The notes beneath the pieces were generated by a model. It saw nothing but the letters and a program-made list of their open reading frames with translations. It ran no database searches and was not told the DNA's origin. Both the position numbers and the translations under genes were made by a program. Of a stretch of DNA of 64,000 bases, positions 4,489-62,200 are shown one piece after another. This DNA is from Mustelus asterias. Taxonomy: Eukaryota. The stretch spans positions 27,094,001-27,158,000 of the forward strand of contig NC_135814.1 of the NCBI RefSeq assembly GCF_964213995.1, in the 5' to 3' direction. Position 1 is the first letter of the stretch. Each line of letters begins with the position of its first letter.

Positions 4489-5236
4489 GTGACCAAGACA
4501 CCACACAACCCTGCAACAGCAACCTCTGCAAGACGTGCCGGATCATCGACACAGATGCCATCATCTCACGTGAGAACACCATCCACCAGGTACACGGTAC
4601 ATACTCTTGCAACTCGGCCAATGTTGTCTACCTGATACGCTGCAAGAAAGGATGTCCCGAGGCATGGTACATTGGGGAAACTATGCAGACGCTGCAACAA
4701 CGGATGAATGAACACCGCTCGACAATCACCAGGCAAGACTGTTCTCTTCCTGTTGGGGAGCACTTCAGCGGTCACGGGCATTCGGCCTCTGATATTCGGG
4801 TAAGCGTTCTCCAAGGCGGCCTTCGCGACACACGACAGCGCAGAGTCGCTGAGCAGAAACTGATAGCCAAGTTCCGCACACACAAGGACGGCCTCAACCG
4901 GGATATTGGGTTTATGTCACACTATTTGTAACTCCCACAGTTGCGTGGACCTGCAGAGTTTCACTGGCTGTCTTGTCTGGAGACAATACACATCTTTTTA
5001 GCCTGTCTTGATGCTCTCTCCACTCCCATTGTTTTGTTTCTTAAAGACTGGATTAGTTGTAAGTATTCGCATTCCAACCATTATTCATGTAAATTGAGTC
5101 TGTGTCTTTATAAGTTCTGTTTGTGAACAGAATTCCCACTCACCTGAAGAAGGGGCTCAGAGCCTCGAAAGCTTGTGTGGCTTTTGCTACCAAATAAACC
5201 TGTTGGACTTTAACCTGGTGTTGTTAAACTTCTTAC
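4489..5236 (+). mobile_element. 5'-truncated Penelope-like element (GIY-YIG endonuclease C-terminus plus pseudo-LTR)
   Basis: Translates as NVVYLIRCKKGCPEAWYIGETMQTLQQRMNEH...GLNRD. Duplicated target TACAGGTGCATCA at 4476-4488 and 5234-5246. Ends in CTTCTTAC like the other Penelope ends in the window. Confidence 0.93.
5136..5180 (+). ncRNA. Minimal type-I hammerhead ribozyme motif in a Penelope pseudo-LTR
   Basis: CTGAAGA (5144-5150), stem GGGGCT/AGCCTC, GAAA (5167-5170), palindromic AGCT helix III, flanking CAC/GTG stem I. Confidence 0.75.
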
Positions 5237-5246
5237 AGGTGCATCA

Positions 5247-6868
5247 AGACATCCCTGCTTTTATATTCTATCCCCCTCGCAATATAGGCCAACATCCCAT
5301 TTGCCTTCTTGATCACCTGTTGTACCTGCAGACTGGGCTTTTGCATCTCATGCACAAGGACCCCCAGGTCCCTTTGCACGGTAGCATGTTTTAATTTGTT
5401 TCCATTGAGATAGTAATCCCATTTGTTATTATTTCCTCCAAAGTGTATAACCTCGCATTTCTCAACGTTATACTCCATTTGCCATATCCTCGCCCACTCA
5501 CTCAGCCTGTCCAAATCTCTCTGCAGATCTTCTCCGTCCTCCACACGATTCACTTTTCCACTTATCTTTGTGTCGTCTGCAAACTTCGTTACCCTACACT
5601 CCGTCCCCTCCTCCAGATCATCTATATAAATGGTAAACAGTTGCGGCCCGAGTACCGATCCCTGCGGCACGCCGCTAGTTACATTCCTCCAACCGGAAAA
5701 ACACCCATTTATTCCGACTCTTTGCTTCCTGTCGGATAGCCAGTCCCCAATCCACTTTAACACACTACCCCCAACTCCGTGTGCCCTAATCTTCTTCAGC
5801 AGCCTTTTATGGGGCACCTTATCAAACGCCTTTTGGAAATCCAAAAACACCGCATCCACCGGTTCTCCTCCATCAACCGCCCTCGTCACATCTTCATAAA
5901 AATCCAACATGTTCGTCAAGCATGACTTTCCCCTCATGAATCCATGCTGCGTCTGATTGATCGAACCATTTCTATCCAGATGCCCTGCTATCTCCTCTTT
6001 AATAATGGATTCCAGCATTTTCCCTACTACAGACGTTAAGCTGACCGGCCTATAGTTACCCGCCTTTTGTCTCCTTCCTTTTTTAAACAGCGGGGTAACA
6101 TTAGCCGTTTTCCAATCAACCGGCACTACCCCAGAATGCAACGAGTTTTGATAAATAATCACTAACGCATCCACTATTACCTCTGACATTTCTTTCAACA
6201 CCCTGGGATGCATTCCATCCGGACCCGGGGACTTGTCCACCTTCAGTCCCATTAGTCTACCCAGCACTGCCTCTCTGGTAACATTAATTGTATTAAGTAT
6301 TTCTCCTGCTGCCAACCCTCTATCGTTAATATTTGGCAAACTATTTGTGTCCTCCACCGTGAAGACCGACACAAAAAACTTATTTAAAGACTCAGCCATA
6401 TCCTCATTTCCCACTATTAACTCCCCCCTCTCGTCCTCCAAGGGTCCAACATTCACTCTAGCCACTCTATTCCTTTTTATATATTTATAAAAACTTTTAC
6501 TATCATTTTTTATATTAATTGCTAGCCTAGCTTCATAGTCTATCCTTCCTTTCTTTATCGCTTTCTTAGTCTCTCTTTGTTGTTTCTTAAATTTTTCCCA
6601 ATCACTTGTTTCTCCACTATTTTTGGCCACTCTGTACGCAGCTGTTTTTATTTTAATACTCTCCTTTATTTCCTTCGTTATCCACGGCTGGTTCTCCCTT
6701 TTCTTACAATCCTTGTTTTTTGCTGGAATATATTTTTGCTGAGAACTGAAAAGGATCTCCTTAAAAATCCTCCACTGTTCCTCAGCTATCCTACCTGCCA
6801 GCCTGCTCTCCCAGTCTACCTTAGCCAATTCATCCCTCATCCTATCATATTTCCCTCTGTTCAAACAG
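5247..6868 (-). CDS. CR1 ORF2 reverse transcriptase domain (5'-truncated; continues at 4488-3986 after the Penelope insert)
   Basis: Track ORF 5233..6897 ends RDVLMHL and track ORF 3986..4621 contains [14 protein letters not shown]. The frames join when the insert and one TSD copy are removed. Confidence 0.85.
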
Positions 6869-9800
6869 AGGTCCCGCTGCTCACTTCCCTCTCCCAATTT
6901 GCAACCATTCAGGTAGTAATTGCCTCTTTGTTTTTGTTTCCTAAGTGAATAACCTCACATTTATCCAAATTATACTGCATCTGTTATTGATTTGCCCACT
7001 CACCCAACCTGTATCCTCATCACAGTTCACCCTCCCACCCAACTTGATATCATCTGCAAACTTTGAGATGTTACATTGTTCCCTCATCCAAATCATTAAT
7101 ATATATTGTGAATAGCTGGGGTCACGGCACTGAACCCTGTGGCACCCCACTAGTTACTACCTGCCAAATTGAAAAGCACCCATTAATTCCTACTCTTTGT
7201 TTCCTCTCTACCAACCAGTTTTCTATCCATCTCAATACACTTCCCCCAATTCTATGCGCTTTAATCTCTTATGCGGGACTTTGTCAAATGCTTTCTGAAA
7301 GTCCAAATATACCACATCGACTGGCTTCCCCTTGTCAACTCTACCAGTTACATCTTCAAAGAATTCCAACAGATTTGTCATGAATGATTTCCCCTTCATA
7401 AATCCATGCTGACTCTGTCTGATACTGCCATTGCTTTCTAAATGCTCCCCTATAAAGTTCTTGATATTGGATTCGAGAATTTTCCCCACCACCGATGTTA
7501 GGCTTACTGGTCTATAATCCCTGTTTACCCTCTACCTCCATTTTTGAATATTGGAGTGACATTAGCTCCCCTCCAGTCTACAGGGACTGTTCCATTGTCG
7601 ATAGAATCCTGGAAGATGACCACCAATGCATCCATTATTTCTAGAGTCACTTCCTTAAGTACTCTGGAATGTAGATTATCAGGCCCTGGGGATTTATCTG
7701 CCTTCAATCCCATCAATTTTCCCAGCGCCATTTCTCTACTAAAATTGATCTCCCTCAGTTCTTCCCACTCACTAAATCTTGCATTCTTCATCATTTTTGG
7801 GATCTGATTTGTGTCCTCTTTTGTGAAGACTGAACCAAATTATGTATTTAGTTGCTCAGCAATTTCTTTGTACCCTATTATACATTCCCCCGTTTGTCTG
7901 TAGGGGACCTACATTTGTCTTCACCAACCTCTTTCTCTTCACGTTTCTATAGAAACTCTTAGTGTTCCCTGCAAGCTTACTTTCATACTGTATTTTCCCC
8001 TTCTTAATCAATCCCTTGGTCCTTCTTTGCTGAATTCTAAACTACTCCCAATCATCAGACCTATTTTTTTTTGGCCAATCTGTATGCTTCTTTCTTGGAT
8101 CGGATACTATCTCTAATTTCCTTTGTAAACCATGGATTAGCCCTCTTACCCATTTTGCTTTTGTGCCAGACAGGAATAAGCAGTTGCTGCAGGTCCCCCA
8201 TGCCTTCCTTGAATGTTTGCCATTGCCTATCCACTGTCATCCCTTTAAATAACTCTCCCCAATCTATCAAGGCCAACTCACACCTCATATCTCCATAGTT
8301 TCCTTTATTAAGTTTCAGCGCTCTGAATCAACTACTTCACTCTTCATCTTGATAAAAACTTCTATCATGTTATGGTCGCTCATCCCCAAGGGGTCTCACA
8401 CAGCTCGATTGGCAATGATTCCCTTCTCATTACACAGTTCCCAGTCAAAGATGGTCTGCTCTCCAGTTGGTTCCTCCACATATTGGTCAAGAAAACCATC
8501 CCAGGAATTCCTCTTCTACGGCATTGTGGCTAATTTGATTTGCCCAATCTATGTGCAGATTAAAATCACCGATATTCCCTTATCACATCTCTAATTTCAT
8601 GTTTAATACCATTCCCAACATCACTACTTCAGATTGAAGTCTATATATGACACCCACTAATGTTTTTTGCCCCTTGGTATTTCTCAACTCTACCCATACA
8701 GACTCCGCGATGTCAAAGCTAATATCCTTTCTCACTATTGTGTTAATTTTCTCTTTAACCAGCAGTGCCACTCCACCATCTTTTCCTTTATGCCTGCCCT
8801 TCCTAAATACTGAATACCCTGGGACATTCAATTCCCATCCCTGCAGCCATGTCTCCGTAATCCTAATTATATCGTAATCCCAATTATATCGTACCCGTTT
8901 ACATCTATCTGCACGATTAGTTCATCCACTTTATTGCAAGTGCTCCACCCATTAAGGCACAGAGCCTTTAAGCTTGTCTTTTTGTCTCACTCCCAATATT
9001 TTTCTCTATAGCCCTATTTGAATTTTGTCCTTGGTTTCTTTGCCTATCACTTTTCTTATTCCCTTTTCTACCTTTTGTTTTTTGTCCTTGCCCCCCTCCT
9101 TCTTTGACTCCTTACATAGGTTCCCATCCCCCTGGCATATTAGTTTAAACCCTCCCCAACTGCTCCAGCAAACAGTCCCCCTTGGACATCAGTCCCAGCT
9201 CTGCCCAGGTGTAACCCGTCCAATTTGTACAGGTCCCACCTCCCCCAGAACCAGTTCCAATGCCCCAGGAATCTGAAACCCTCCCCCTGACACCATCTCT
9301 TCAGCCACGTATTCATCCGATATATCCTGTCATTCCTACTCTGACTAGCTTGAGGCGCTGTAGTAATCCTGAGATCACATCCTTTGAGGTCCGATTTCTT
9401 AACTTTCTTCCTAGCTCCCTGTATTCTGCTTTTGGGACCTCATCCCTTTTTTATCTATTTCATTTGTACCGATGTATACCACGACCACTGGCTGTTCGCC
9501 CTCCCCCTCCAGAATGTTCTCTACTCACTCCGAGACAGCCTTGACCTGAGCACCAGGGAGGCAACATACCATCCTGGAGTCTTGTTTGTGGCCACAAAAA
9601 CATCAGTCTATCCCTCTTACAAGTGAGTCCCCTATAACTATTGCACTGGCACACTTTTTACCCCTCTCCTCTGCCGCAAAACCAACCATGGTGCAACGAG
9701 TTTGGCTGCTGCTGCTTTCCCTTGGGAGGCCATTCCCCTCAACAACATTCAAAAAAGGTGTATCTGTTTTGCAGGAGAATGGCCACAGGAGATTCCTCCA

Positions 9801-19499: not shown

Positions 19500-22400
19500 G
19501 TTGTGGAGATGCCGGCGTTGGACTGGGATAAACACAGTAAGAAGTCCCACAACACCAGGCTAAAGTCCAACAGTTTTATTTGGTGGCAAAAGCCACTAGC
19601 TTTCAGAGCGCTGCTGCTTCATCAGGTAAGTGGGAATTCTGTTCACAAACAGGGAATATAAAGACACAAACTCAACTTACAAAATAATGATTGGAATGCG
19701 AGTCTTTACAGGTAATCAAGTCTTAAAGGTACAGACAATGTGAGTGGAGAGAGGGTTAAGCACAGGTTAAAGAGATATGTATTGGCTCCAGCCAGGACAG
19801 TTCGTGAGATTTTGCAAGCCCAGGCAAGTCGTGAGCATCGTGAGGGTTACAGATAGTGTGACATGAACCCAAGATCCCAGTTGAGGCCGTTCTCATGTGT
19901 GCGGAACTTGGCTATCAGTCTCTGCTCAGCGATTCTGCGTTGTCATATGTCGTGAAGGCCGCCTTGGAGAATGCTACCCAAAGATCAGAGGCTGAATGCC
20001 CATGACCGCTGAAGTGTTCCCCAACAGGAAGAGAACACTCTTGCCTGGTGATTGTCAAGTGGTGTTCATTCATCCGTTGTCATAGCATCTGCATGGTCTC
20101 TCCAATGTACCATGCCTCAGGACATCCTTTCCTGCAGCGTATCAGGTAGACAAAGTTGGCCGAGTTGCAAGAGTATGTACCGTGTACCTGATGGATGGTG
20201 TTCTCATGTGAGATGATGGCGCCATGTCGATGATCCGGCACGTCTTGCATAGGTTGCTGTGGCAGGGTTGTGTGTGGTGTTGGTGGTCACTGTTCTCTTG
20301 AAGGCTGGGTAGTTTGCTGCGGACAATGGTCTGTTTGAGGTTGTGTGGTTGTTTGAAGGCAAGAAGTGGGGGTGTGGGGATGGCCTTGGCGAGATGTTCG
20401 TCTTCATCAATTACATGTTGAAGGCTCCGGAGAAGATGTCATAGCTTCTCCGCTCCGGGGAAGTACTGGACGATGAAGGGTACTCTGTCCGCCGTGTCCC
20501 GGGTTTGTCTTCTGAGGAGGTCGGTGCAGTTTTCCGCTGTGGCGCATCGGAACTGTCGATTGATGAGTCGAGTGCCATATCCTCTTCTTATGCGGGCATC
20601 TTTCAGCATCTGGAGGTGTCTGTTGCGATCCTCCTCATCTGAGCAGATCCTGTGTACATGGAGGGCTTGTCCATAGGGGATGGCTTCTTTAACATGTTTA
20701 GGGTGGAAGCTGGAGAAGTGGAGCATCTCGAGGTTATCAGTGGGTTTGCGGTACAGTGAGGTGCTGAGGTGACCATCCTTGATGGAGATGGGTGTGTCCA
20801 ATAATGCAACCGATTCTGGAGAGTAGTCCATGGGGAGTCTGATGGTGGGATGGAACTTGTTGATGTCATCATATAGTGGTTTTAGTGATTGTTCACCATG
20901 AGTCCAAAGGAAGAAAATGTCATCGATGTATCTAGTGTATAGCATCGGTTGACGGTCCTGTGCGGTGAAGAGGTCTTGTTCGAACCTGTGCATGAAGATG
21001 TTGGCATATTGAGGTGTGAATTTGGTCCCCACGGCTGTTCCGCGTGTCTGGATGAAGAACTGGTTGTTGAAGGTGAAGACATTGTGGTCCAGGATGAAGC
21101 GGATGAGTTGTAAAATTGCATCTGGAGACTGGCAGTTTTCGGCATTGAGTACTGAGGCAGTTGCAGCAATGCCATCATCGTGGGGGATGCTGGTGTAGAG
21201 TGCCGAGACATCCATTGTGACGATGAGTGCTCCTGGTTCAACTGCTCCATGTGTGCTGAGTTTCTGTAGGAAGTCTGTAGTGTCGTGACAAAAGCTGGGT
21301 GGTCTTTGTACAATGGGTTTCAGGATACCCTCGACATAGCCGGAGAGGTTCTTGCACAGGCTCCCATTACCCGATATGATGGGATGGCTGGGTGTGTTTG
21401 CCTCGTGTATCTTTGGGAGGCAGTAGAGATCTCCAACGCGGGGAGTATGTGGGATGAGAGCACGGAGGGTGCTCTGAAGGTCCGGATCAAAGGTCTTGAT
21501 CAGTCTGTTGAGCTGACGGGTGTGTTCTTTGGTCGAATCTGCAGGTAACTGTCTGTAGTGTTCCTCGTTGTTCAGTTGTCGGTACACTTCTTTGCAGCAA
21601 TCCGTTCTGATCAGTATGACGATGGCCCTTCCTTTGTCTGCTGGTTTGATGACAATGTTACCAGTTTGTCTTGAGAGCATGGATGGCATTGCGTTGTGCT
21701 TGGGTGATGTTCGGGGCTGTCTTGTGAGTGCGGCTGATGAATCTGGTGTTGACGCACCTCCTGACGGCTTGGGCATACATGTCAAGTCGAGGGCAGTGGC
21801 CTTCCGGAGGAGTCCAATTCGACTCTTTCCTCTTCGGATGCACTGCGGATCTCTCTGTCGGCTATTCCGGTTCATTGGCTGTCTCATTGTGTTCGCTGTT
21901 GGCCTCTTGAGGTTTGTGGAAGAACTCCCGCAGCCTCATTCGCCTGATGAATTCCTCTGTGTCTGCTGCGAGACTGATGGGGTCTATTTTGGTGGTGGGG
22001 CAGAAATTGAGCCCTCGGCTGAGAACTTTGATTTCATCTGGTTGAAGTGTGTAGTCCGACAAGTTGACAATGGACTTCCCTGCAGTTCTACTGTTTTCTA
22101 CTGTGGTACCAGGGGAGGCTTGGTTGCTGCTGGTGGTGATGCTGAGTTTCTCAAGTTTCCTGTTCTTGGTGTGCATCTAGATGGCGTAGTTCCTTTGTCT
22201 CGTCTACACTGCAGGAAAGGATGTCCCGAGGCATTGTACATTGGGGAGACCATGCACATGCTACAACAATGGATGAATGAACACCACTCGACAATCACCA
22301 GGCAAGACTGTTCTCTTCCTGTTGGGGAGCACTTCAGCGGTCACGGGCATTCGGCTTCTGATCTTCGGGTAAGCGTTCTCCAAGGCAGCCTTCAGGACAC

Positions 22401-33535: not shown

Positions 33536-35621
33536 CAGTAAACCCTTATTTTAAGTTGTGTCTGGGTTGCTGGAAATCACGGTTTTAACTGAAAAACCTT
33601 TCAGTGAATCATGGGTTCCCATAGGAATCCATGTACACATTAAAATACTGTACCATACTGTCCAGCACTGTGCATTCCTAGCTGAAATAGCCTGCAAAAT
33701 AAATCAGTGAATATAATCCGGTGAAATTCAAATTAGATAACACTCCCCAGTCTCTCTTCTTAGGCTGTTCCTCGAGTTCAGAATGTGGAGATGCCGGCGT
33801 TGGACTGGGGTGGGCACTGAAAGAAGTCTCACAACACCAGGTTAAAGTCCAACAGGTTTATTTGGAATCATGAGCTTTCAGAGTGCTGCTCCTTCCTCAG
33901 GTGAGTCAGCTGATGATGGAGCAGCACTCCAAAAATTTGCGATTCCAAATAAACCTGACGGGACTTTAACCTGGTGTTGTGAGATTTCTTACCTTGAGTT
34001 CAGGGATGACTTGCTTCCACTCCAGCTCGATGGGTTGAGGAGATGTTTGACCTCTTCAGGGATGCTTTGAGGAGATCCTGAATTGTTTGAGTGGAAGTGG
34101 TTTTGAGTGATTTGGAGCCTTGATGATGGGCAGGTGAGTTTGGGGGAAGACCTGGTTCTTGCCACTGGATTGGAGGATCTTTTGAAAACACTGTTGGTTA
34201 TTCTGATTGATGATGTATTCTCACTACCTGCTGCCTTGATAAGCGAGGAGAAGGTATGGTGTGAGTAGTAAGCTCTGAACACTGCAATTGCTCCCTGATC
34301 CATGGGCTGTATCAACAAAATTGTGTTAGGTGGCAGGGAAACCATCTTCACATTTTCAGAAATATCATCGAGGCTGACAGGATAACCCAGGCAATTCTCC
34401 AAGATTAGCAATATCTTGAAGGTGAGACTTGCTCTGGTGTAATATTCCCTCCAGGCAGGGATGGCATATAGAAAGAAGTACTTTTGAAAACGTACCCCAA
34501 TCATCCAGGCTTTCTAATTTAAATGCCAATTTACATGGAAACGTACCTTGTGGTAACCCCTCAATTCTCGGACTGGTACACCATTCTTAAACTTAAAAAT
34601 CTACATTGGAATTTCCACCAAGCAGAACAGTCAGTCGATTCTTGGCAGCTTGAAATCCTGGCCTCATCTTCTCTTTCAAAATGTATGTTCTCTGTGGCAC
34701 ATGTTTCCAAAAGAAGCTCCGTCTCATCATGAAAAACTTGTTTTGATGATTTGCCACCTTCTTCAATGACTCTCTTGAAATGGGCTGTGTATTCATGAGT
34801 CGCTTCTGTATCAGCACTCGTTGCTTTGCCAGACATTTTAATGTTGGGCAGATAGGAACACCTCTTGAAACACTCGAACTGTCCATGACTAGCATTGAAA
34901 CTTTCTGACTGAACATTCTCACCCTATAAGTCTTCATGCAAGTTTTTGGCTTTTGCTTGGATGACCATCAGACTGAGAGGCACATGACGCTGGTTTTGGT
35001 TTTTGATCCAGACTGTCAAAGGTCCTTCCATGTTCTACATTGTGCTGCTTATAGACTGACCCACTCTACTAGCACTTAATGTGTGACATGCTGCGCACTT
35101 TGTTTGATTTTATCAATGTTAATACAAATTGTTCTCACTGAGGTAGAGGGCTAGCCCAAGCTTTCTAGCAATATTGACTGTGCATTCTTGAGATGTTTTA
35201 AAACACCCAAATTTTGCTGCCAGGCTGATGGCTTTCTTGATTTCTATACAGCAGCAAACACACTAACATCACTTACTGGGTGTCTCTGGCTTATGTTTAA
35301 AACTGATTTAAAAGTCTCATCCATGGCGAAAATCCAAATTTAAAATCAAATTTAAATCTTCCAACTTTTTGTTTGCGGAGAAAAAAAACAGCATCCTTAA
35401 CAAGGCCACAACCTGACAGGACCCAGCGTGGTATGAAAGGAGCTAAGGAGCGTTGCGTGAAATGTGATGATGATAAATGGTGATGATGTGCAACACACAA
35501 TGACGTGAAATGGCACTAAATTGGGAATCGTAGCTTAATTCAAGGAAAATGGGCCGAAAGCAAGAAAAACGTTATAACCAAAAAACTTACAAGTGGGGCA
35601 ACTTAAGAAACGGATTTATTG
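33536..35621 (-). mobile_element. Tigger/pogo-family DNA transposon with decayed transposase
   Basis: TIRs CAGTAAACCCTTATTTTAAGTTG / reverse complement CAATAAATCCGTTTCTTAAGTTG, TA flanks at 33534-33535 and 35622-35623. Transposase motifs QVF.DET..FWK.VP.RTYI.KEK..PGFQAAKNRLTVLLGGN and LPPNT..LIQPMDQG.I.VFRAYY. Confidence 0.9.
33782..33992. mobile_element. Non-coding palindromic mini-Penelope (two inverted pLTR ends) inside the Tigger element
   Basis: Arms homologous to 19500-19630 and 22715-22810. TSD CTCGAGTTCAG (33771-33781) / CTTGAGTTCAG (33993-34003). Confidence 0.85.
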
Positions 35622-43824: not shown

Positions 43825-46800
43825 TGATGCATGATTAAATCACTCGGGAGGCTAGATTGTACCCGGGAAATAAAGGCTTTTATTACTGACAAGAATGGAG
43901 CACACTATATACAATACAATCCCAGATTAAAGGGTCACCAGGCAGTGCAGTGACCTTTAAACTTCTCCAGGTAGGCGGAGCCAACTGGAGTGTACCACAG
44001 AACAATATCAACAGGTAGAACAGCCCAACCCTAACCCCAACAGTGACAACAGTAACATATCTACAAATACCCATAGTGCTGACCATCTATGGTTCGGTAC
44101 TCATAGTGGTAACCAACTATGGTTCACCACATTCACCCCTCCTTTAAAACAAAGGCCGGCGGGGCAAAACAAAACAGAACAACTGTTCATATATTCACAA
44201 GTTCAGTCGTATTGGAGGACCGCACCGTCTCTGCGACCTCCTCAACACTGGCGGTAACGCCGGTTCTGGTGACCGTGGTGACCTTCTCTCCAAGGCGGTG
44301 TCCAGTGACTCCTCCAGTTCCTCATGGACGGGTGGACTACAAGGTGGCGACAATCTACTGGACTCGAGCACGCCTCGAGGTGGCGACAATCTCCTGGACT
44401 CAGGCAAGCTGTACACGGGAGTAAGAGGATTAAGTGGTGGTCCCGATACTGCCCGCGCCGTGTCAGGAGGGGAGATAAAGGTCAAGGGGTCCCTAACTAG
44501 GGGTGTGGGAGCGACTGGGGTTTCCAAGTCCCCTGCAGGCGCCAGATCTCTAATAGAGACCGTGTCCTCTCGCCCGTCAGGATATGCCACATAGGCATAT
44601 TGAGGGTTGGCGTGGAGGAGATGGACCTGTTCAACCAAAGGGTCGGACTTTTGGGTCCTAACATGCCGCCGCAGGAGGACAGGTCCTGAGTACATCAACC
44701 AAGATGGTAATGAGGTCCCAGAGGAAGACTTCCTAGGGAAGGAAAACATCCTCTCATGTGGAGTAGCGTTGGTTGCCGTACACAGGAGGGAGCGGATGGA
44801 ATGGAGCGCATCAGAGAGTACCTCTTGCCAACGGGAGACTGGAAGACCTTTCGACCTCAACGCCAGTAAAACAGCCTTCCAGACTGTAGCATTTTCTTGT
44901 TCAACCTGTCCGTTACCCCTCGGGTTATAACTCGTAGTTCTACTTGAGGCAATCCCTTTTGAGAGCAGGTATTGCCTCAAGTCGTCACTCATAAATGACG
45001 AGCCCCTATCACTGTGGATATAGCTGGGGTAACCGAACAGGGTGAAAAGATCCCGTAATGCTTTGATAACCGTGGCAGCGGTCATATCTGAACAGGGAAT
45101 GGTAAAAGGGAATCGTGAGTACTCGTCAATCACGTTGAGGAAGTACACGTTCCGATCTGTCGAGGGAAGGCGGCCCTTGAAGTCCACACTCAGTCTTTCA
45201 AAAGGGCGAGTGGCCTTAATGAGGTGTGCCCTGTCAGGTCGGTAGAAGTGCGGTTTGCATTCAGCACATACCTGGCAGCTTTGGGTTATGGACCTGACAT
45301 CATCCACTGAGTAGGGTAGATTCCGGGCCTTTACGAAATGGAAGAGCCGAGTGATCCCCGGATGGCAGAGATCATTGTGGAGGGCCTGTAATCGATCCTC
45401 CTGCACACTTGCACATGTTCCACGCGACAGGGCGTCTGAGGGCTCATTGAGCTTCCCTGGACGGTACATGATATCATAGTTGTAGGTGGAGAGTTCGATT
45501 CTCCACCTCAAGATTTTATCACTTTTGATCCTACCGCGTAACGTGTTGTTGAACATGAACGCCACGGACCGCTGGTCCGTGAGCAGGGTGAATCGTTTTC
45601 CCGCCAAGTAATGGCGCCAATGCCGAATGGCCTCCACAATGGCCTGGGCCTCTTTTTCCACCGCGGACTGCCGAATTTCAGGGCCTTGGAGGGTGCGAGA
45701 GAAAAAGGCGACGGGCCTGTCCGCCTGGTTAAGTGTGGCGGCCAGGGCGAAATCAGATGCATCACTCTCCACCTGAAAGGGGATGGACTCATCAACAGCG
45801 TGCATCGTGGCTTTCGCGATGTCGGCTTTTATCCCTTCAAAGGCTAAGTGAGCCTCTGCTGCTCGGGGAAAAGAGGTAGACTTGATGAGCGGACGGGCTT
45901 TGTCCGCATAATTGGGAACCCACTGTGCATAGTATGAGAAGAAACCTAAGCATCTTCTCAGTGCTTTGATACTAGTGGGCAGGGGAAGTTCAAGGAGGGG
46001 ACGCATATGGTCTGGATCAGGGCCAAGGACCCCGTTTTCCACCACGTATCCGAGAATTGCTAGGCGGCGCTTGCTAAATACGCACTTCTCCCTGTTGTAG
46101 GTCAGATTCAGGCGAGACGCAGTGCGTAAAAATCTAAGGAGGTTGGCATCGTGGTCCTGCTGGTCATGGCCGCAGATAGTGACGTTATTCAGGTACGGGA
46201 AGGTAGCCCGCAGCCCGTTCTGGTCCACCATTCAGTCCATTGCACGCTGGAAGACCGAGACCCCATTCGTGACGCCAAAGGGAACCCTTAAAAAGTGGTA
46301 AAGATGACCATCCGCCTCAAAGGCCGTGTATTTTCGATCCTCTGGGCGAATGGGGAGCTGGTGGTAAGCTGACTTCAAGTCAATGGTGGAGAACACCCGG
46401 TACTGCGCAATCTGGTTGACCATGTCAGATATGCGCGGGAGAGGATACGCATCCAGTTGCGTGTATCTATTAATGGTCTGACTATAGTCTATGACCATCC
46501 GGGGTTTGTTTCCAGTTTTAAGCACCACGACTTGCGCTCTCCATGGACTAGTGCTAGGTTGAATGATCCCTTCCCTGAGGAGCCGCTGAACTTCAGATTG
46601 AATAAAGATCCGATCCTCAGCGCTGTAACGCCTGCTCTTGGTTGCGATGGGCTTGCAGCCTGGCACGAGATTCTCGAATAAGGATGGTGGGGTGATTCTG
46701 AGTGTCGAGAAGCTACACGTGGAGCGCGCTGGGCAATTTGGAGGCTGCTGTACTCCCACTGAAAGTGGAGGGAGTGGCCCATCGTACTGCAGGGTTACAC

Positions 46801-48534
46801 TCCTCAGGTGGACCATAAAGTCTAGTCCCAGGAGTATTGGAGTGCAAAGGTGTGGTAACAGGGGGAGCCTGAAGTTCTCGTAAACTGTGCCCCGCACCGT
46901 TAGGTTGACCACGCAGCTCCCTAGCACGGTAACAGACCGGGACCTCGACGCCATCGAAATTGTCTGTCTGACAGTCCGTACTCGGAGACCGCACCCTTTC
47001 ACGGTGTCAGGGTGAATGAAACTCTCCGTGCTCCCACTGTCAAACAAACAATGAATTTGGCGTCCATTTACCTCTATGCCCATCATGGACTTGTCGAGTC
47101 TGTGAGGCTTGGCCTGGTCCAGGATGATTGACGCCACCGTTGGGTCTTGGGTGCCATTGCAGGCAGCTGAGATGGTTGATGATGATGACCCCTGCTGGTC
47201 GTCTGCGGTCGGTGCCGACCAAAATGGCTGCGCCCATGGATCGCACGTGGTCGGTGGCGCTAAAAGTGGCGGCCCCTGCAGGTCGCACATGTCTTGCGTC
47301 TTCGTCGTCAGGAATGGCGGCGCTCTGGAATCGCACGTGGTGGAAGACCTCGAAGAAGCTGGAGACAAGGAGACAGGCCCTGGAGAATCACACGCCGCGC
47401 TGCTATGCTTGGAGGGTGGTTTGGTCCTGCAGACTTTGGCATAATGCCCTTTCTTTCCACACGCGGAGCAAAATACCGTTCTAGCTGGACATCGCTGCCG
47501 AGGGTGTTTCGCCAATCCACAGAAGTAACACCGCGGGCTTCCTGGAGCTGCCGCCGTCGTCGGGTCCGAGGTTGAAAGCACAATCGTGCAGTTTTTCGGA
47601 GCCGCTGGGTAAAGTTGAGTCGGTGGCTGTACTTGCCACGATGTTCCCACGTGGTCGGTGGGGTACGTTTCTAGACTTCTGGAGGCCGTTTCCATTGTGT
47701 CAGCCAATTCTACCGTCTTAGCGAGGTCTAGGTTACCTTGCTCTAGCAGCCGAAGGTGAATATACGATGAGCCGATTCCCACCACGAACGCATCTCGGAA
47801 CAAGTCATTCGTATACTGGGCCGCCGACACTGGCTTGCAGTTGCAGGCTCTGGCTAGCTTTTGAAGTTCGCGCAGGTACTGTCCTGTCGTTTCGCCGGGC
47901 TGCCGCCGTCGAGTGGCTAGAAGGTGTCGAGCATGGATCTCGTTTGGCGGTTTGTTGTACAGTTTCTTAAGTAGTTCGATGGCCCCTTTGTAGTCTTGGG
48001 CATCACGGATTGATGAGTATACGGTGTCGCTTACCCTCGCGTGGAGGACCCGCACTCTATCGGCGTCGTTTTGAATGGCTGTTGAGGCATCGATGTAGTC
48101 TTGAAAACACTTTAACCAATGGTCGTAAGTGTTCGACGCTCCTGCCGCACGTGGATCTAAAGTAAGCCGATCGGGTTTCAACATTTGCTCCATGGTTTTT
48201 TTTTACCAAACTTTTGTTAGTAATAAAATTGATGCGCGATTAAATCACTCGGGAGGCTAGATTGTACCCGGGAAATAAAGGCTTTTATTACTAACAAGAA
48301 TGGAGCACACTATATACAATACAATCCCAGACTAAAGGGTCACCAGGCAGTGCAGTGACCTTTATACTTCTCCAGGTAGGCGGAGCCAACTGGAGTGTAC
48401 CACAGAACAATATCAACAGGTAGAACAGCCCAACCCTAACCCCAACAGTGACAACAGTAACATATCTATAAATACCCATAGTGCTGACCATCTATGGTTC
48501 GGTACTCAGTGGTAACCAACTATGGTTCACCACA
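43825..48534 (-). mobile_element. Full-length young Gypsy LTR retrotransposon
   Basis: LTRs at 43825-44131 and 48230-48534 (TG...CA; by eye 6 substitutions plus one 2-bp indel). 5-bp TSD GTCCG at 43820-43824 and 48535-48539. Polypurine tract at 44132-44145. Domain order gag-PR-RT-RH-INT. Confidence 0.97.
44195..48193 (-). pseudogene. Single gag-pol ORF broken by one in-frame TGA (46232-46234)
   Basis: Two CCHC knuckles (CYFCGLAKHPRQRC, CSACGKKGHYAKVC), protease LFDSGS, RT IDLKSAYHQ and PFGVTNG, RNase H ESDASDFA, integrase HHCC plus D-D-E. Reads FQRAMD*MVDQ in one frame; the RT catalytic site reads YLNN. Confidence 0.92.
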
Positions 48535-57395: not shown

Positions 57396-58979
57396 CTTCT
57401 GGCCAATTAAGCTATTTATATATTTTTTTAAATCACAGTGCATGAGCAATATAGCTTGGGTACATGGCAGGAACACAGAATTCATCCAAGTGTTGGATCC
57501 CTGGCTGTACACTGAAAATCTTGCCTGTGTCCATTTCCAATTTGTATCTCCTGAGTTTAACTTTGTTGAGGGTGGGGTGAGGGGTGGAACTTACACTTCA
57601 GACGCTATTAATTGGTTTATCTGCCCGTGTGCTATTAACTGGTTCCATTATTTGGCTTCCTATATCAGTTGATTCTGTGACAAGAAGGGAGAAACAAAAT
57701 GTTCAAATCCCAGCAAAAATCAGTAATTCTGACACTAGTAATAATAGAGTTCCATTTTTAAGGTACACAAGACTGGTTCAGACAGGTTTTACCGCTACCC
57801 TTCGTTTCCACGTTTTAGTGGTTTTGCCTTTTGGGTTCTGAAAAGCGCCGCAAAAATATGCACATGGCTTGTAGTCAAGCTAGCTTGCAGTCATCAGAGG
57901 GAGTAAGGCACTGGTCCTCGTTTCCCTGCTGCTTCCCCAGCCTGCTCCAGTCTTCAGATGGAACTGTTTTATTAAGGGCTGCACTCTTTAATTTCCAGGC
58001 AGCCCAGCAGAGTGCATCTGTTTTACATGGGATTTATGCCAGCTCCTATTCTGATGGATAAGCAGATGAACGAAACAGGAAATTATAGCAGCTCTTTAGG
58101 CCAGTTCTTATTCTTCATATTGGAGAAAATGTGGTTGCAACTCATTGCATGAAAATCGTGGGGCAATTGCAAATTGCACAGCGCAATGTACATACAACAG
58201 TGGTTTACTATGTTGCAATATCAGGGACATTCACTGTTTAATTTGTTTTAATTTTCATCATACGAATGGAAAAGTTTGCTTATCCCTGTATTGAGCAACA
58301 TTTAGGGATGTGATATTAAGTGATTCAAAGGACCTTTCTGATGCCGATATAACAACATATTTACTGGAGCTGGCATATTAATTTAGAACAATCGAAGTTT
58401 CTTGTGACTTTCATTGAGCAGTTCTGAGTGAACAGGTGACATTGGAGTTTTTGTATGACCAAATATTTATCTTAAAACTTACCCACTGTCCAGGAAGTAA
58501 TTGATTCCTCCTCTCAATCACAGCCTCATGTTTTTTAAATCCTACTCGGACAAACAAGCAATCTGAGTGTAACTTTGTGTAAGGAAAATTGAAAAAGGTT
58601 GACGGAAAATATTGCTTTAGGGAATTGCTTGAACTGGAGATGAATTGACATTAGAAGTTGCTGGTGACACTACTTGAAGCTTATCTGATATATTTTACTA
58701 CAATTCTTCAAGTGACTACACCACCAAACACCCTGCACTGATATAACTCCACTATGGTAAATCAGAGACCAAAGTAGTTGCCCTTGCATAACTGCTGAAG
58801 CTGTGCCCTTCAGTTACATAGCAACTCATCAATACTAATCTTTGAATTGGGTAAATATAGTACAAGGCCACATTTGCAATGAACACCAAAATGTTGAAGC
58901 ACCCATATAATGCATATGACATAAGATAGGTATACGTTTTACATACAACAAGTTATATTCAATTCTTACATACCTTTTT

Positions 58980-59295
58980 ATCACTTCTCGGCCTTTTGGC
59001 TAAGATCAAGTGTAGTATCGACATGCTGTGCTTAGTTGAAGTCATTAAGTTACATTTTAGCTTCATTTGAAGCAATTTTTAAAAGCGGCATCTCGGCCTT
59101 TTGGCTAAGGTGCAAATGAGATCAAGCCTTGGAGGAGGAGCTATGCCTACTCCAATCAGCTTGGCTCATGTAGATCAAGCCCAAGACAGGAGGTGAGAGC
59201 CCTGTCTTGTCAGCTTGGATCGGGAATGTCTCAACTTGTTGAGACTCTGAACTGGATTTGATTTGATTGAATTGGATAAATAAATTTTTTAAAAA
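58980..59295 (+). mobile_element. U2 snRNA-headed SINE-like insertion
   Basis: 58980-59019 equals the U2 5' end (ATC[A]CTTCTCGGCCTTTTGGCTAAGATCAAGTGTAGTATC). Second U2 fragment at 59091-59109, AT-rich tail, ACCTTTT repeated on both flanks (58972-58978, 59295-59301). Confidence 0.75.
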
Positions 59296-62200
59296 CCTTT
59301 TATTGCAGACAAAATCTTCACAGCCAAGTGATTCTGATCGGTAGTGTGTATTTTTTCAGGACGATTTGGTGAAAAATGGCCAAATCAGCACAAGGATCAA
59401 GGAAATTTGAGAAATTACATCCAGTGTGAATGGAGTTTCCACGATTGTTTGTGTTAGTTTACAAACCTTTGCACTAGAAACTGGCCCATTCACAAAATCT
59501 GACCATGACCCCAGGTCGAACTCATTATCATGGTGAGTTTCAGTTGCTTGGACATGTTAATGGGCTTTCGAGGAGACTCTGAAAATTAAATTGTTTCTTG
59601 GCACAAGGGCATTGTTAGGCACCTTTCAAAATGTATGCATATGCTTTTAATTTGCTGCAGATTTAGATTAGATACTGAAAATAATGTATATTATTAGCAA
59701 TAAACACATTTTATGTTGCATTAATTAATGAACCCCGCACCATATTAACATTCTTAATTATATAAAGGAATCTTTTAATGTATTTTTTCAGATACGTTCT
59801 AAAATACCGCCAGGTTGAGCTGTTCAATTTGGCGAAAGCTGGAAGGTGAGCAAAAGGAAAAGAGCGAAAGTAATTTTTGCCCGGATTACTAATTGCATTC
59901 AACAATTGGCCCAGCTGTCCAAAAAAACTTTTGCAATGTGCAACAAAATTAAATGCAGGTGATAAGTAACAGTTTTAATATCTTTAATATGTCTAAAAGG
60001 AAACAATTTCCAATTGCAAAACTCATTGAATGACTGAGCTATGAGATTGCTTTGCATCTTTATCCCTGTTTCTACTTGGGTACATGTAGTACAGTGCATA
60101 GTATTACAAACCTTCCAGAGTGTCTGTCTTCTGAGATGTCCTGACAAGCCCCTGTGACATAAAGGTTAAAGGCAGTGGTGATCTTCACTGCAATATTCGA
60201 ATCCAGATTTGTGCCAAGGTGCAGAGGCTTTTTGTTTTGGCAAAAGTGGCAGATGAGCCCAAACATCCTAAGTCCCGCCCAGAAACACAGCTCATCCTAT
60301 TTTCATGGGGGTGGTAATGGAGTTGAGCTGGGATTCAGAGGTGGTTGGCCATTAAAGTTATCAGTTGCCTCCACTGAAGTGGGGTTTTTGTAGTCCACAA
60401 ATCTGAAATTCAACATCTGCAGCAGTTTAGACCAAGTAAGAGCTGATCTGAACTTGGAGGATTCATTTGGATAGCCAGGGAGGGTAAGGTACCATGGATA
60501 TAGTCCATGGCCACCATTGAGAGAGAGAGATGAAGCAATCTTTAGGAGAGGTAAGACACCCTTTGGGATAGGTAAAGCACCCTTTAACATTGTTACAAGT
60601 AAGCATGATTGTGCGTAAAAAGTGCATAAACCCATTGGAACTGTCAAAAATGTTAGTGGATTTAACTCTTCAGGGCTTTTAAATTATAAAAAAGTCTGGA
60701 GTTGAAAGAAATGATATTTGATATTTTATTCTGTCTGTTGCCATAGGTCTGAGGGTTATCACTTCAGGAGTTGTGCTGCAATGACTGATTTTACTAACTA
60801 ACATCGCAATAGGATGTCTGTTAAGTGAGATTGACAGTGATTATAAAATAGACTTGTTTGTTTGCATAAAAGATTAGTTGAAGAAATTTCTACATACTGA
60901 ATGGATTGTTATCAATGCGAGTTTTATTTTAAATAGTGAGGTCATCAATAGACGCATGCATTTATTTTATGTCAGCATGGTTCTTGAGGTTTGCCCGTGG
61001 TTGATAATATGTGAGTTTCCATGGAGGGGGTAGAGGCAAAGGGTGGTAGGTGGGCTGGGGTGACATGAGTTGGCATAGGGGCTATGAAGGGCCATGAGGA
61101 TGTTGGTCGGGATTATAGTGAATATGATGGCCATGCAGGGATGGATGGCAGAGATTGGCATGAATGCGGTCTTTGGAGTGTATGATGGGCTTGAGGGGTA
61201 AGGGCGTCATAAAAATTTTAATCATTCCAAACTGCTGGATCACAGAGTTTTCTGCCCAGCCAGCCTCTGCACCCGGCAGCCTCTGCGCTTGTTCCAGGGG
61301 TTGCCCTGACTTTCAACCCAACCTCCCAGTCTGGGCCGCTGTTTATAAAAGGTCAAGTTTGCAGAGCCAAGAATTATTTTGAAATTCGTAGACATGAGAA
61401 AAGATCTGAGCCTCAGAATTTCATCCAAATTCCTGGGTGAGAGTGTGAGAAACATTCTAAAATATATGGAGCAATATTCTGATTCTAGAGACACAAACAT
61501 GCATCCCTAATTAACTCGTACATTTTATAGGCAAGTGTAAAAGTTTATTCAGATTAGTGAGATTAATTGGAAAAAGACTTAATAGCAATTATTATATTCA
61601 AATTATGATACTTTCCTATCTCCTACAAATAGCCTCACAAGACAATTTAAGAAGGAATCTGTATTATTTTGCAGAAGTTGTATTTTCTTTTGAGTGTTCA
61701 TATCAAAATCAAATTAATTTTATTCGCTGTTTCTGTTAATGGATGGGTTCCTTCAGTACATTGTTTTTATTTGTGCATCAACCCTAATTATAAATGTAGT
61801 AACAATTTCTTATTCTCATGGGTATTGGTTTTGGAAATAAAATTGCAACAGTTTTCCAGCTATATTTCATACATATATTATACAGTCATGAAGGATCATC
61901 AATTCAAAATGTCATGAAAAGGTCGAAGAGAAAGGTTAGACATTTCTTCACACAGAGGGTGTTTGTAATGTACGGGGAGTGGTTGAGATAGAGGCTATTA
62001 TGTCACTTAAGGAAAGAGCAGATAAATATTTGAAGCAGAGAGGACAGACTGAGGGTGATTGGAGTGCTTTTATGTTGACAGTTCAGGCACAAAGGGATAA
62101 AAAGCCTCTTTAATTGTTTTAAATTTCTATGGTTCTTAAAGTACAAACGTTTCATGTTTTCATGACTGCCTTCAAAGCATTTACTTTCAATCTGGACAAG

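Follow-up and report, generated by a model that had tools for sequence, protein, structure and literature searches.

How can a short non-coding retroposon that begins with a piece of spliceosomal RNA be moved and transcribed? The question is raised by an element at positions 58980 to 59301 on the forward strand of the 64,000-nucleotide stretch of Mustelus asterias DNA analyzed here (the window), in which a U2 snRNA head is followed by a chain of hairpins. For the SINEU retroposons of crocodilians, transcription is described as an open question in the available part of PMC4494074, since the transcript does not include the snRNA promoter.

The element is about 310 nucleotides long and non-coding, with an A-rich tail. 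Its head (58980 to 59019) corresponds to U2 nucleotides 1 through 40, including stem I and the branch-site-pairing sequence, and matches the genome's own U2 at 39 of 40 letters, the exception being a single G-to-A change at 58983. Downstream of the head are an arm similar to U2 nucleotides 11 through 38 read in antisense (59024 to 59051), a small hairpin (59060 to 59073), and a U/A run (59074 to 59085) that has the spacing of the U2 Sm site without a canonical Sm sequence. A second copy of U2 stem I, provided with a new outer stem, occupies 59088 to 59113 and repeats 19 nucleotides of the head exactly (58986 to 59004 equals 59091 to 59109). Two long hairpins follow, termed A (59116 to 59169), with conserved stems and a hypervariable loop, and B (59173 to 59221), which has a 3′ arm derived from U2 nucleotides 39 through 62 and holds the single clear compensatory pair of the family. 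Another hairpin (59228 to 59245) sits at the place of U2 stem IIb. The 3′ end (59246 to 59295) is formed by a diverged U2 segment that reaches to just before the Sm site, and then by an A/T-rich tail. As a whole, the 322 nucleotides fold with a z score of -3.44, and 0 of 100 shuffles fold as well.

An earlier reading made from the letters of this DNA (the sequence-only reading) had described the U2 head, the second stem I with its outer stem, and the hairpins at 59060 to 59073 and 59228 to 59245. A check of the window sequence recovers all of these motifs in place. It also recovers the ACCTTTT flanking duplication, whose 7-bp copies lie at 58972 to 58978 and 59295 to 59301, but this is weak evidence when taken alone, since mismatched pairs of flanks reach at least 7 letters in 7.1% of cases. 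Duplications are nevertheless clear for the family: at least 8 letters are duplicated in 36 of 64 headed copies, compared with 2.7% for the control.

These copies are members of a real, young, U2-derived SINE family. One 22-mer from the body has 4,871 exact matches in the genome (control 0), which is a lower bound on copy number, and a 21-mer spanning one head-body junction has 265. A search of the element against its own genome reveals that the best other copies, among 40 scored from 2,355 first-look candidates, are 94–97% identical. The sequence-only reading had proposed a dispersed, structured SINEU-like retroposon rather than a lone truncated U2 pseudogene. The match count, the duplications, and the conserved stems described below uphold this proposal. 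In the unselected sample, defined as the first 63 loci of the 22-mer list on contig C1, the 5′ end falls in U2 nucleotides 1 through 8 for 48 of 64 headed copies, and exactly at +1 for 17. Several subfamilies have spread in parallel, and among the clades listed in a tree built from 167 nearly complete bodies, taken from every locus retrieved, the differences are greatest immediately after U2 nucleotides 35 to 40. The window copy belongs to subfamily B and matches the majority of 51 copies picked for likeness to it at 97.6% (the median for these copies is 98.0%). This pattern indicates that the element is copied as a unit from source copies, with duplications, and the clade-specific junctions disfavor independent chimeras.

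What, then, is the origin of the body? The roughly 275 nucleotides behind the head had been taken as non-U2 sequence, but they are largely U2-derived by way of another family, called D. This family was reached through a diverged short copy, which gave 1,506 candidates, 40 of them scored. Its members are about 215 nucleotides long (19 copies are 77–96% like their majority) and consist of U2 nucleotides 1 through 31, an insert, and diverged U2 from nucleotide 39 to about 170, including stem IIb, an Sm-like site and stem III; the branch-site sequence is absent. Family D aligns with U2 at a score of 118 (the best of 1000 shuffles reaches 60), and the Rfam U2 model gives 44 bits on one of its copies. 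Positions 59088 to 59275 of the window align in turn with family D at a score of 119 (shuffles, 65.5), and hairpin A duplicates a family D hairpin (59.5, compared with 33.5 for the best of 1000 shuffles). Because of these two matches, the inner stem I is most likely the old head of family D. By the first of them, the 3′ end would be U2 nucleotides 39 through 97, cut before the Sm site, and the hairpin at the place of stem IIb is likewise traced via this family. The 3′ two-thirds of the element descend from this older U2-derived SINE, in front of which now stand a new U2 1–40 head and a 67-nucleotide linker. The family shows how a SINE can arise from the gene of a spliceosomal RNA, the steps being U2, family D and the present dimer-like element.

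The U2 link of the 3′ end rests on family D and on global alignment to U2, in which 1 and 16 of 2000 shuffles do as well; direct local alignment is not significant by itself (141 of 1000 shuffles are as good). For the linker region (59020 to 59087), neither a family D 3′ end (178–844 of 1000 shuffles as good) nor degraded U2 nucleotides 41 through 108 (583–1269 of 2000) is supported. Against degraded family D nucleotides 66 through 145, with windows chosen post hoc, 2 of 2000 shuffles do as well for subfamily C, and 111 and 134 for subfamilies A and B.

Two other classifications of the element were set aside. A functional U2 snRNA or variant is rejected because Rfam U2 scores 54.8 bits at the head, compared with about 190 bits for the genes, and because a canonical Sm site is lacking and the branch-site sequence is predicted to be paired. 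A classical Pol III SINE is rejected because the head is U2, T runs are present internally, and Rfam finds only U2, which is the sole family reaching its gathering score in the window and the only one to do so for the body among 13 Rfam matches. The T runs in the head and body (58994 to 58997, 59055 to 59058, 59076 to 59080, and 59099 to 59102) argue against Pol III, as has been argued for SINEU (PMC4494074).

The U2 genes themselves point to a likely helper. The U2a genes reside in arrays on contig C24, and genes of a second, 90%-identical type, U2b, form an array on C21 and score 175 bits. U2 arrays contain a LINE that encodes a CCHC ORF1, an APE endonuclease, a reverse transcriptase (RT) and a zinc-binding domain, and whose relatives include proteins named Tx1. 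The 3′ end of this LINE joins U2 nucleotide 38, and the LINE duplicates U2 nucleotides 38 through 58. A junction at U2 nucleotide 38 corresponds to the Keno target (PMC6136364; PMC4640811). Judged by its APE-type Tx1 structure and this 3′ junction, the LINE appears to be Keno, with no sequence labelled Keno among its returned relatives, and the helper may be another Tx1 family rather than a Keno-type LINE. The LINE copies inspected have ORF2 frames that are broken or cut. As a separate observation, a LINE protein of the window has its highest-identity named relatives in Chiloscyllium (68%), Callorhinchus (66%), Scyliorhinus (63%) and Hypanus (61%), all in partial alignments, whereas bird, turtle and frog relatives reach at most 53% identity. 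This agrees with the cartilaginous-fish host supposed in the sequence-only reading.

The SINE is found inserted at the same site, between U2 nucleotides 37 and 38. Its tail is joined to U2 nucleotides 38 through 52 in 8 of 8 exact matches (control 0), and a looser search returned 54 rows, comprising 14 verified junctions of tail to U2 nucleotide 38, 3 ambiguous cases, 1 duplicate and 36 unrelated sequences. One U2a gene on C24 even holds a SINE, a LINE and another SINE in series, in the order promoter, U2 1–40, SINE, U2 38–55, truncated LINE, U2 pieces, SINE, and U2 38–191. SINE and LINE also stand in series at non-U2 sites, with one repeated duplication between them (L005, L015, L063, and L142), and tandem SINE/LINE arrays are common. 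Targeting is loose: of the 63 unselected loci, whose flanks were checked against U2 and the LINE, none was located in a U2 gene, and the LINE adjoined 2. Together, the common junction and duplications indicate indirectly that the element is probably mobilized by a Tx1-clade LINE with a common target, the same kind of evidence as that in the original SINEU paper.

The sequence-only reading had suggested that the element arose from a U2-targeting retrotransposon. The tie to such an element holds in the common U2 nucleotide 38 junction and duplications, but descent from it does not. The SINE tail resembles the LINE end over only about 10–15 letters, and over fewer in subfamily B, and the body is not simply the 3′ end of this LINE. 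We found no significant match for an origin of the body from the LINE 5′ UTR, the LINE 3′ UTR or DNA downstream of U2; against the two UTRs, 13–51 of 200 shuffles score equally high. Two of ten comparisons are borderline, in which one subfamily was set against U2 upstream DNA and the inter-ORF region (5 and 4 of 200 shuffles), and both of these matches are absent with the other subfamily. Because the body is largely U2-derived and has no significant likeness to the LINE UTRs, the element did not originate by internal deletion of Keno. A SIDE-type LINE derivative was also rejected, given that the ends do not come from the helper LINE and only the last 10–15 letters are alike.

Could copies inside U2 genes supply the missing promoter? 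Ten SINE heads abut U2 upstream DNA without a gap, as recovered by three pattern searches (2 of 2, 6 of 7, and 4 of 14 matches, with overlaps removed). The -70 to -45 region, where the proximal element has been placed (PMC4494074), is present in seven of the ten: one on C24 (U2a, at 43.06 Mb) and one each on C1, C2, C6, C8, C14 (62.230 Mb) and C21 (28.064 Mb) (U2b), with the upstream element assigned by position only. The remaining three carry 7, 32 and 36 nucleotides of U2 upstream DNA. The sequence-only reading had proposed a search for a source locus with a U2 promoter, and these copies provide candidates, but not for the subfamily of the window copy. Searches with exact patterns and the listed upstream letters gave no promoter-bearing copy of subfamily B among 18 matches or of family D among 12, and none was found for the GGTCGG subfamily. 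The C14 promoter-bearing copy is 98.9% like a dispersed copy, and its identity to six sampled copies is at least 97%. In the sample, near-identical dispersed relatives exist only for the promoter copies on C14 and C6; for five of the seven copies that include the -70 to -45 region, no sampled copy reaches 97%. The promoter copy in the C24 array is not a source, because it is internally deleted and its likeness to the sampled dispersed copies does not exceed 90.5%.

Promoter stretches have also been exported. Six of them are flanked by duplications at dispersed sites (L083, L098, L164, L165, L168, and C14), and the duplication of L087 includes U2 nucleotides 38 through 58. From these duplication-flanked cassettes, we infer that RNA from SINE-bearing U2 loci was retrotransposed. 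Full-length LINE copies are likewise joined to upstream DNA of U2b plus U2 nucleotides 1 through 33 or 35 (L169 and L175). Locus L170 consists of the promoter, U2 nucleotides 1 through 39 and the LINE 3′ UTR, and nothing more; an event of this type would give rise to such an element. The stretch, or part of it, is present in 20 public runs that come from 11 studies and at least eight organisms; contigs cover the body, and also pieces of the LINE, in all four runs inspected (three guessed to be RNA and one DNA), although such contigs cannot reveal RNA start, strand or level.

The predicted fold of the element also involves its U2 head. The first part of the linker resembles the reverse complement of U2 nucleotides 11 through 38, and its differences are mostly A-to-G and C-to-T changes that keep G-U pairs. 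In most copies this arm is predicted to fold back on the head: U2 nucleotides 27 through 37 are predicted to pair with it in 121 of 125 copies, compared with 15 of 46 linker-shuffled controls. The arm of the window copy is weakened by G-to-A changes at 59034 and 59048, and its head is predicted to pair instead with the tail (59248 to 59264), a pairing seen in only 2 of 56 subfamily B copies. By plain alignment, the arm is undetectable in the window copy (1619 of 2000 shuffles as good), while for two copies of subfamily A the match is moderate (21 and 7 of 2000). The 5′ end of the Keno-type LINE is also predicted to fold back on part of that LINE's own U2 head. Our model predicts that the arm hides the branch-site sequence, presumably to keep the RNA from acting as a U2 decoy. 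The sequence-only reading held that spliceosome-interacting sequence might be retained; those letters persist, yet the predicted fold encloses them in a hairpin, and this speaks against use by the spliceosome.

Structural conservation was assessed with 52 hand-picked bodies spanning the clades. Among these, 98.5% of cells pair, mean divergence is 3.5% in 102 paired columns versus 11.2% in 164 unpaired columns, and subfamily-level stem changes preserve pairing. One base pair occurs as G-C, G-U and A-U, whereas changes on both sides affect only 2 of 51 pairs, a number reached by 157 of 500 shuffles. Because pairing is kept and paired columns are less variable, we conclude that the structure is conserved, with thin covariation.

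Considering these findings together, Keno-type enzymes probably move the element, and source copies inside U2 genes probably use the U2 promoter; we infer both the enzyme use and the transcription. Specifically, the Keno endonuclease would nick a U2 gene between nucleotides 37 and 38, and the reverse transcriptase would copy SINE RNA beginning from the A tail. The U2 head of the new copy would then join the matching upstream part of the gene to yield the promoter, U2 nucleotides 1 through 35 or 40, and the body, and RNA polymerase II starting at U2 +1 would produce element RNA whose antisense arm folds the branch-site sequence away. Most copies would land off target without a promoter, the window copy among them, and occasional read-through RNA would carry an entire promoter-SINE cassette elsewhere. 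In its fullest form, this proposal describes an RNA parasite that renews itself through the U2 gene: it is built from U2, homes into U2 genes by way of Keno, regains a correct head and a Pol II snRNA promoter with each such insertion, founds a new subfamily each time, has evolved a masking arm, and can export cassettes. We regard the odds for this more ambitious version as even. If true, this would be a SINE life cycle that does without an internal promoter, and it would probably explain how SINEs with an snRNA head come to be transcribed.

Alternatively, Keno-type enzymes might move the element while read-through transcription of the LINE, U2 arrays or host genes supplies its RNA, so that U2 insertion is a by-product of enzyme preference. 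Cassettes with DNA upstream of U2 +1 (L164, L165, L168, and C14) do need transcripts begun further upstream, and both the abundance of tandem SINE/LINE arrays and the lack of any promoter-bearing subfamily B source among those found fit such an arrangement. However, the starts of three-quarters of the headed copies in U2 nucleotides 1 through 8, with upstream DNA rare, would require read-through RNA to be cut precisely at +1, and Rfam detects no ribozyme in L063. We therefore consider read-through an unlikely main source of element RNA.

Far less probable is that the head was acquired anew with every insertion by a reverse transcriptase jumping from a headless RNA to U2 snRNA. Such jumps have been described for SINEU and R2 (PMC4494074; PMC3414825), and extra U2 pieces with various ends (nucleotides 47–55) precede copies L074, L076, L098, L154 and L168. 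Yet the head-body junction is fixed in each subfamily, with 265 exact copies of one and others common to clades, head changes are shared within clades, and the arm in the body fits the head. The clade-specific junctions largely refute independent chimeras. We give equally little credence to a source that is a functional host small RNA, either a U2 variant or a structured non-coding RNA, with the dispersed copies as processed pseudogenes. Family D does retain an Sm-like site and stem III, and stems are conserved while loops vary, with stem changes that keep pairing, but conservation of structure is also expected under selection for retrotransposition. Moreover, several subfamilies spread in parallel, the element stops before the Sm site and masks the branch-site sequence that family D had lost, and the loci found include no clean gene that has both a promoter and a 3′ flank of its own; promoter copies mostly continue into U2 nucleotide 38.

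The preferred reading, in which Keno-type enzymes mobilize a SINE transcribed from U2 genes, can be approached experimentally, because named loci that fuse the U2 upstream region at +1 to the element make transcription of an snRNA-headed SINE directly testable. As a transposon, the family is of a generally familiar type, and Dfam or Repbase may already list it without a name. We found no report of an snRNA-headed SINE from sharks, nor any description of a non-autonomous Keno partner, in the literature searched, which covered sources other than subscription journals, Dfam and Repbase. In their available parts, the chondrichthyan SINE paper PMC5499810 yielded no mention of snRNA, SINEU or Tx1, and PMC8143547 and PMC5381603 yielded no shark case. 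SINEU is reported only in crocodilians in the available part of PMC4494074. The present family adds a second vertebrate lineage with snRNA-headed SINEs. It is also a candidate for a non-autonomous partner of Keno and a naturally occurring structured cargo for a retrotransposon with site specificity.

In a comparison by features, those that generally define the SINEU group (SINEU-1, -2 and -3 of crocodilians) are present here, namely an snRNA head, a short (under 500 bp) multi-copy non-coding sequence, copying as a unit with duplications, and probable Tx1 mobilization. As described for SINEU (PMC4494074), these short retroposons have a U2-derived head and an A tail, repeated 5′ addition of U2 pieces, partial duplications, internal T runs, tandem insertions around a duplication, and a probable Tx1 LINE helper that itself has a U2 head. 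Family D further resembles SINEU-3, a rearranged U2. The hosts differ, being crocodilians for SINEU and cartilaginous fish for the present family. The preferred target of SINEU is the Mariner transposon Mariner-N4 (PMC4494074); the specific target found for the shark element is the U2 gene, and its likely helper is a U2-targeting LINE. Relative to SINEU, the shark family is also distinguished by copies with U2 upstream DNA and by a predicted head-masking antisense arm.

The element shares its 3′ junction at U2 nucleotide 38 with Keno (PMC6136364; PMC4640811) but encodes nothing and has a body that is not LINE-derived. Utopia uses the same U2 insertion site (PMC4640811), yet it carries a restriction-like endonuclease where the LINE described here has an APE domain. 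The nearest analogues in life cycle would be the R2 SIDEs of Drosophila, which are non-autonomous, reside within a multicopy RNA gene, are co-transcribed with it, and are moved by a site-specific LINE (PMC3414825). These SIDEs, however, are LINE-derived, being internal deletions that include a ribozyme (PMC3414825), whereas the shark element is built from its target gene, has no detected ribozyme, and has dispersed into thousands of off-target copies.

A second type of U2 gene, U2b (score 175 bits), is arrayed on contig C21 of the genome that carries the window (G000:C21:28.055-28.082 Mb; loci L208-L210), and shares 90% identity with U2a, the type arrayed on contig C24. The U2b units are approximately 450 bp in length, and U2b has an upstream region of its own. 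The C21 array has received many insertions of both the U2-derived SINE and the Keno-type LINE that is its putative helper, and it also carries inversions. On C24 (G000:C24:44.81-44.94 Mb; L051), a tandem unit of 8,035 bp that was amplified as one block includes one intact U2 gene, one U2 remnant interrupted by the LINE, and a broken Keno-type LINE. ORF2 of this LINE is itself interrupted by another short element, which we take to be a likely tRNA-type SINE.

At locus L170 (G000:C7:56.56 Mb), the U2b upstream region and U2 nucleotides 1-39 are joined to only the last 270 nucleotides of the LINE, a proto-SINE layout. Furthermore, the LINE 5´ UTR begins with an arm (L169:1551-1700, minus strand) that is predicted to fold onto the LINE's own U2 head, like the arm of the SINE.

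Both long hairpins of the SINE (window 59116-59169 and 59173-59221) carry the same C / UCA internal loop, which is constant across subfamilies and is possibly a protein-binding motif. One minus-strand copy (position 1024 of L057) has many A-to-G changes relative to the majority, a pattern expected if RNA editing were to precede reverse transcription. Some copies are paired nearby in opposite orientation (L125, L148, L153, L158, L098 and L054), several of them head to head.

Other transposon remains in the window, all on the minus strand, are an LTR-retrotransposon pol (44195-48202) encoding protease, RT, RNase H and integrase in two frames divided by a stop, and two LINE RT fragments plus one DDE_1 transposase fragment (5233-6954, 20439-21935 and 33989-34513).

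Short stretches that we presume to resemble the U1 5´ end lie close to a LINE 5´ end (L096:3635-3665) and directly ahead of a family D head (L261; G000:C11:26846894-26846986); an Rfam search at E 0.001 did not report U1 for these stretches. Family D, an older U2-derived SINE of about 215 nucleotides (L217-L236, for example G000:C5:51274680-51274797 plus flanks), yielded 1,506 candidates, 40 of which were scored. Its copies keep an Sm-like site and stem III, and the branch-site sequence is gone. This design is similar to that of crocodilian SINEU-3 (PMC4494074).
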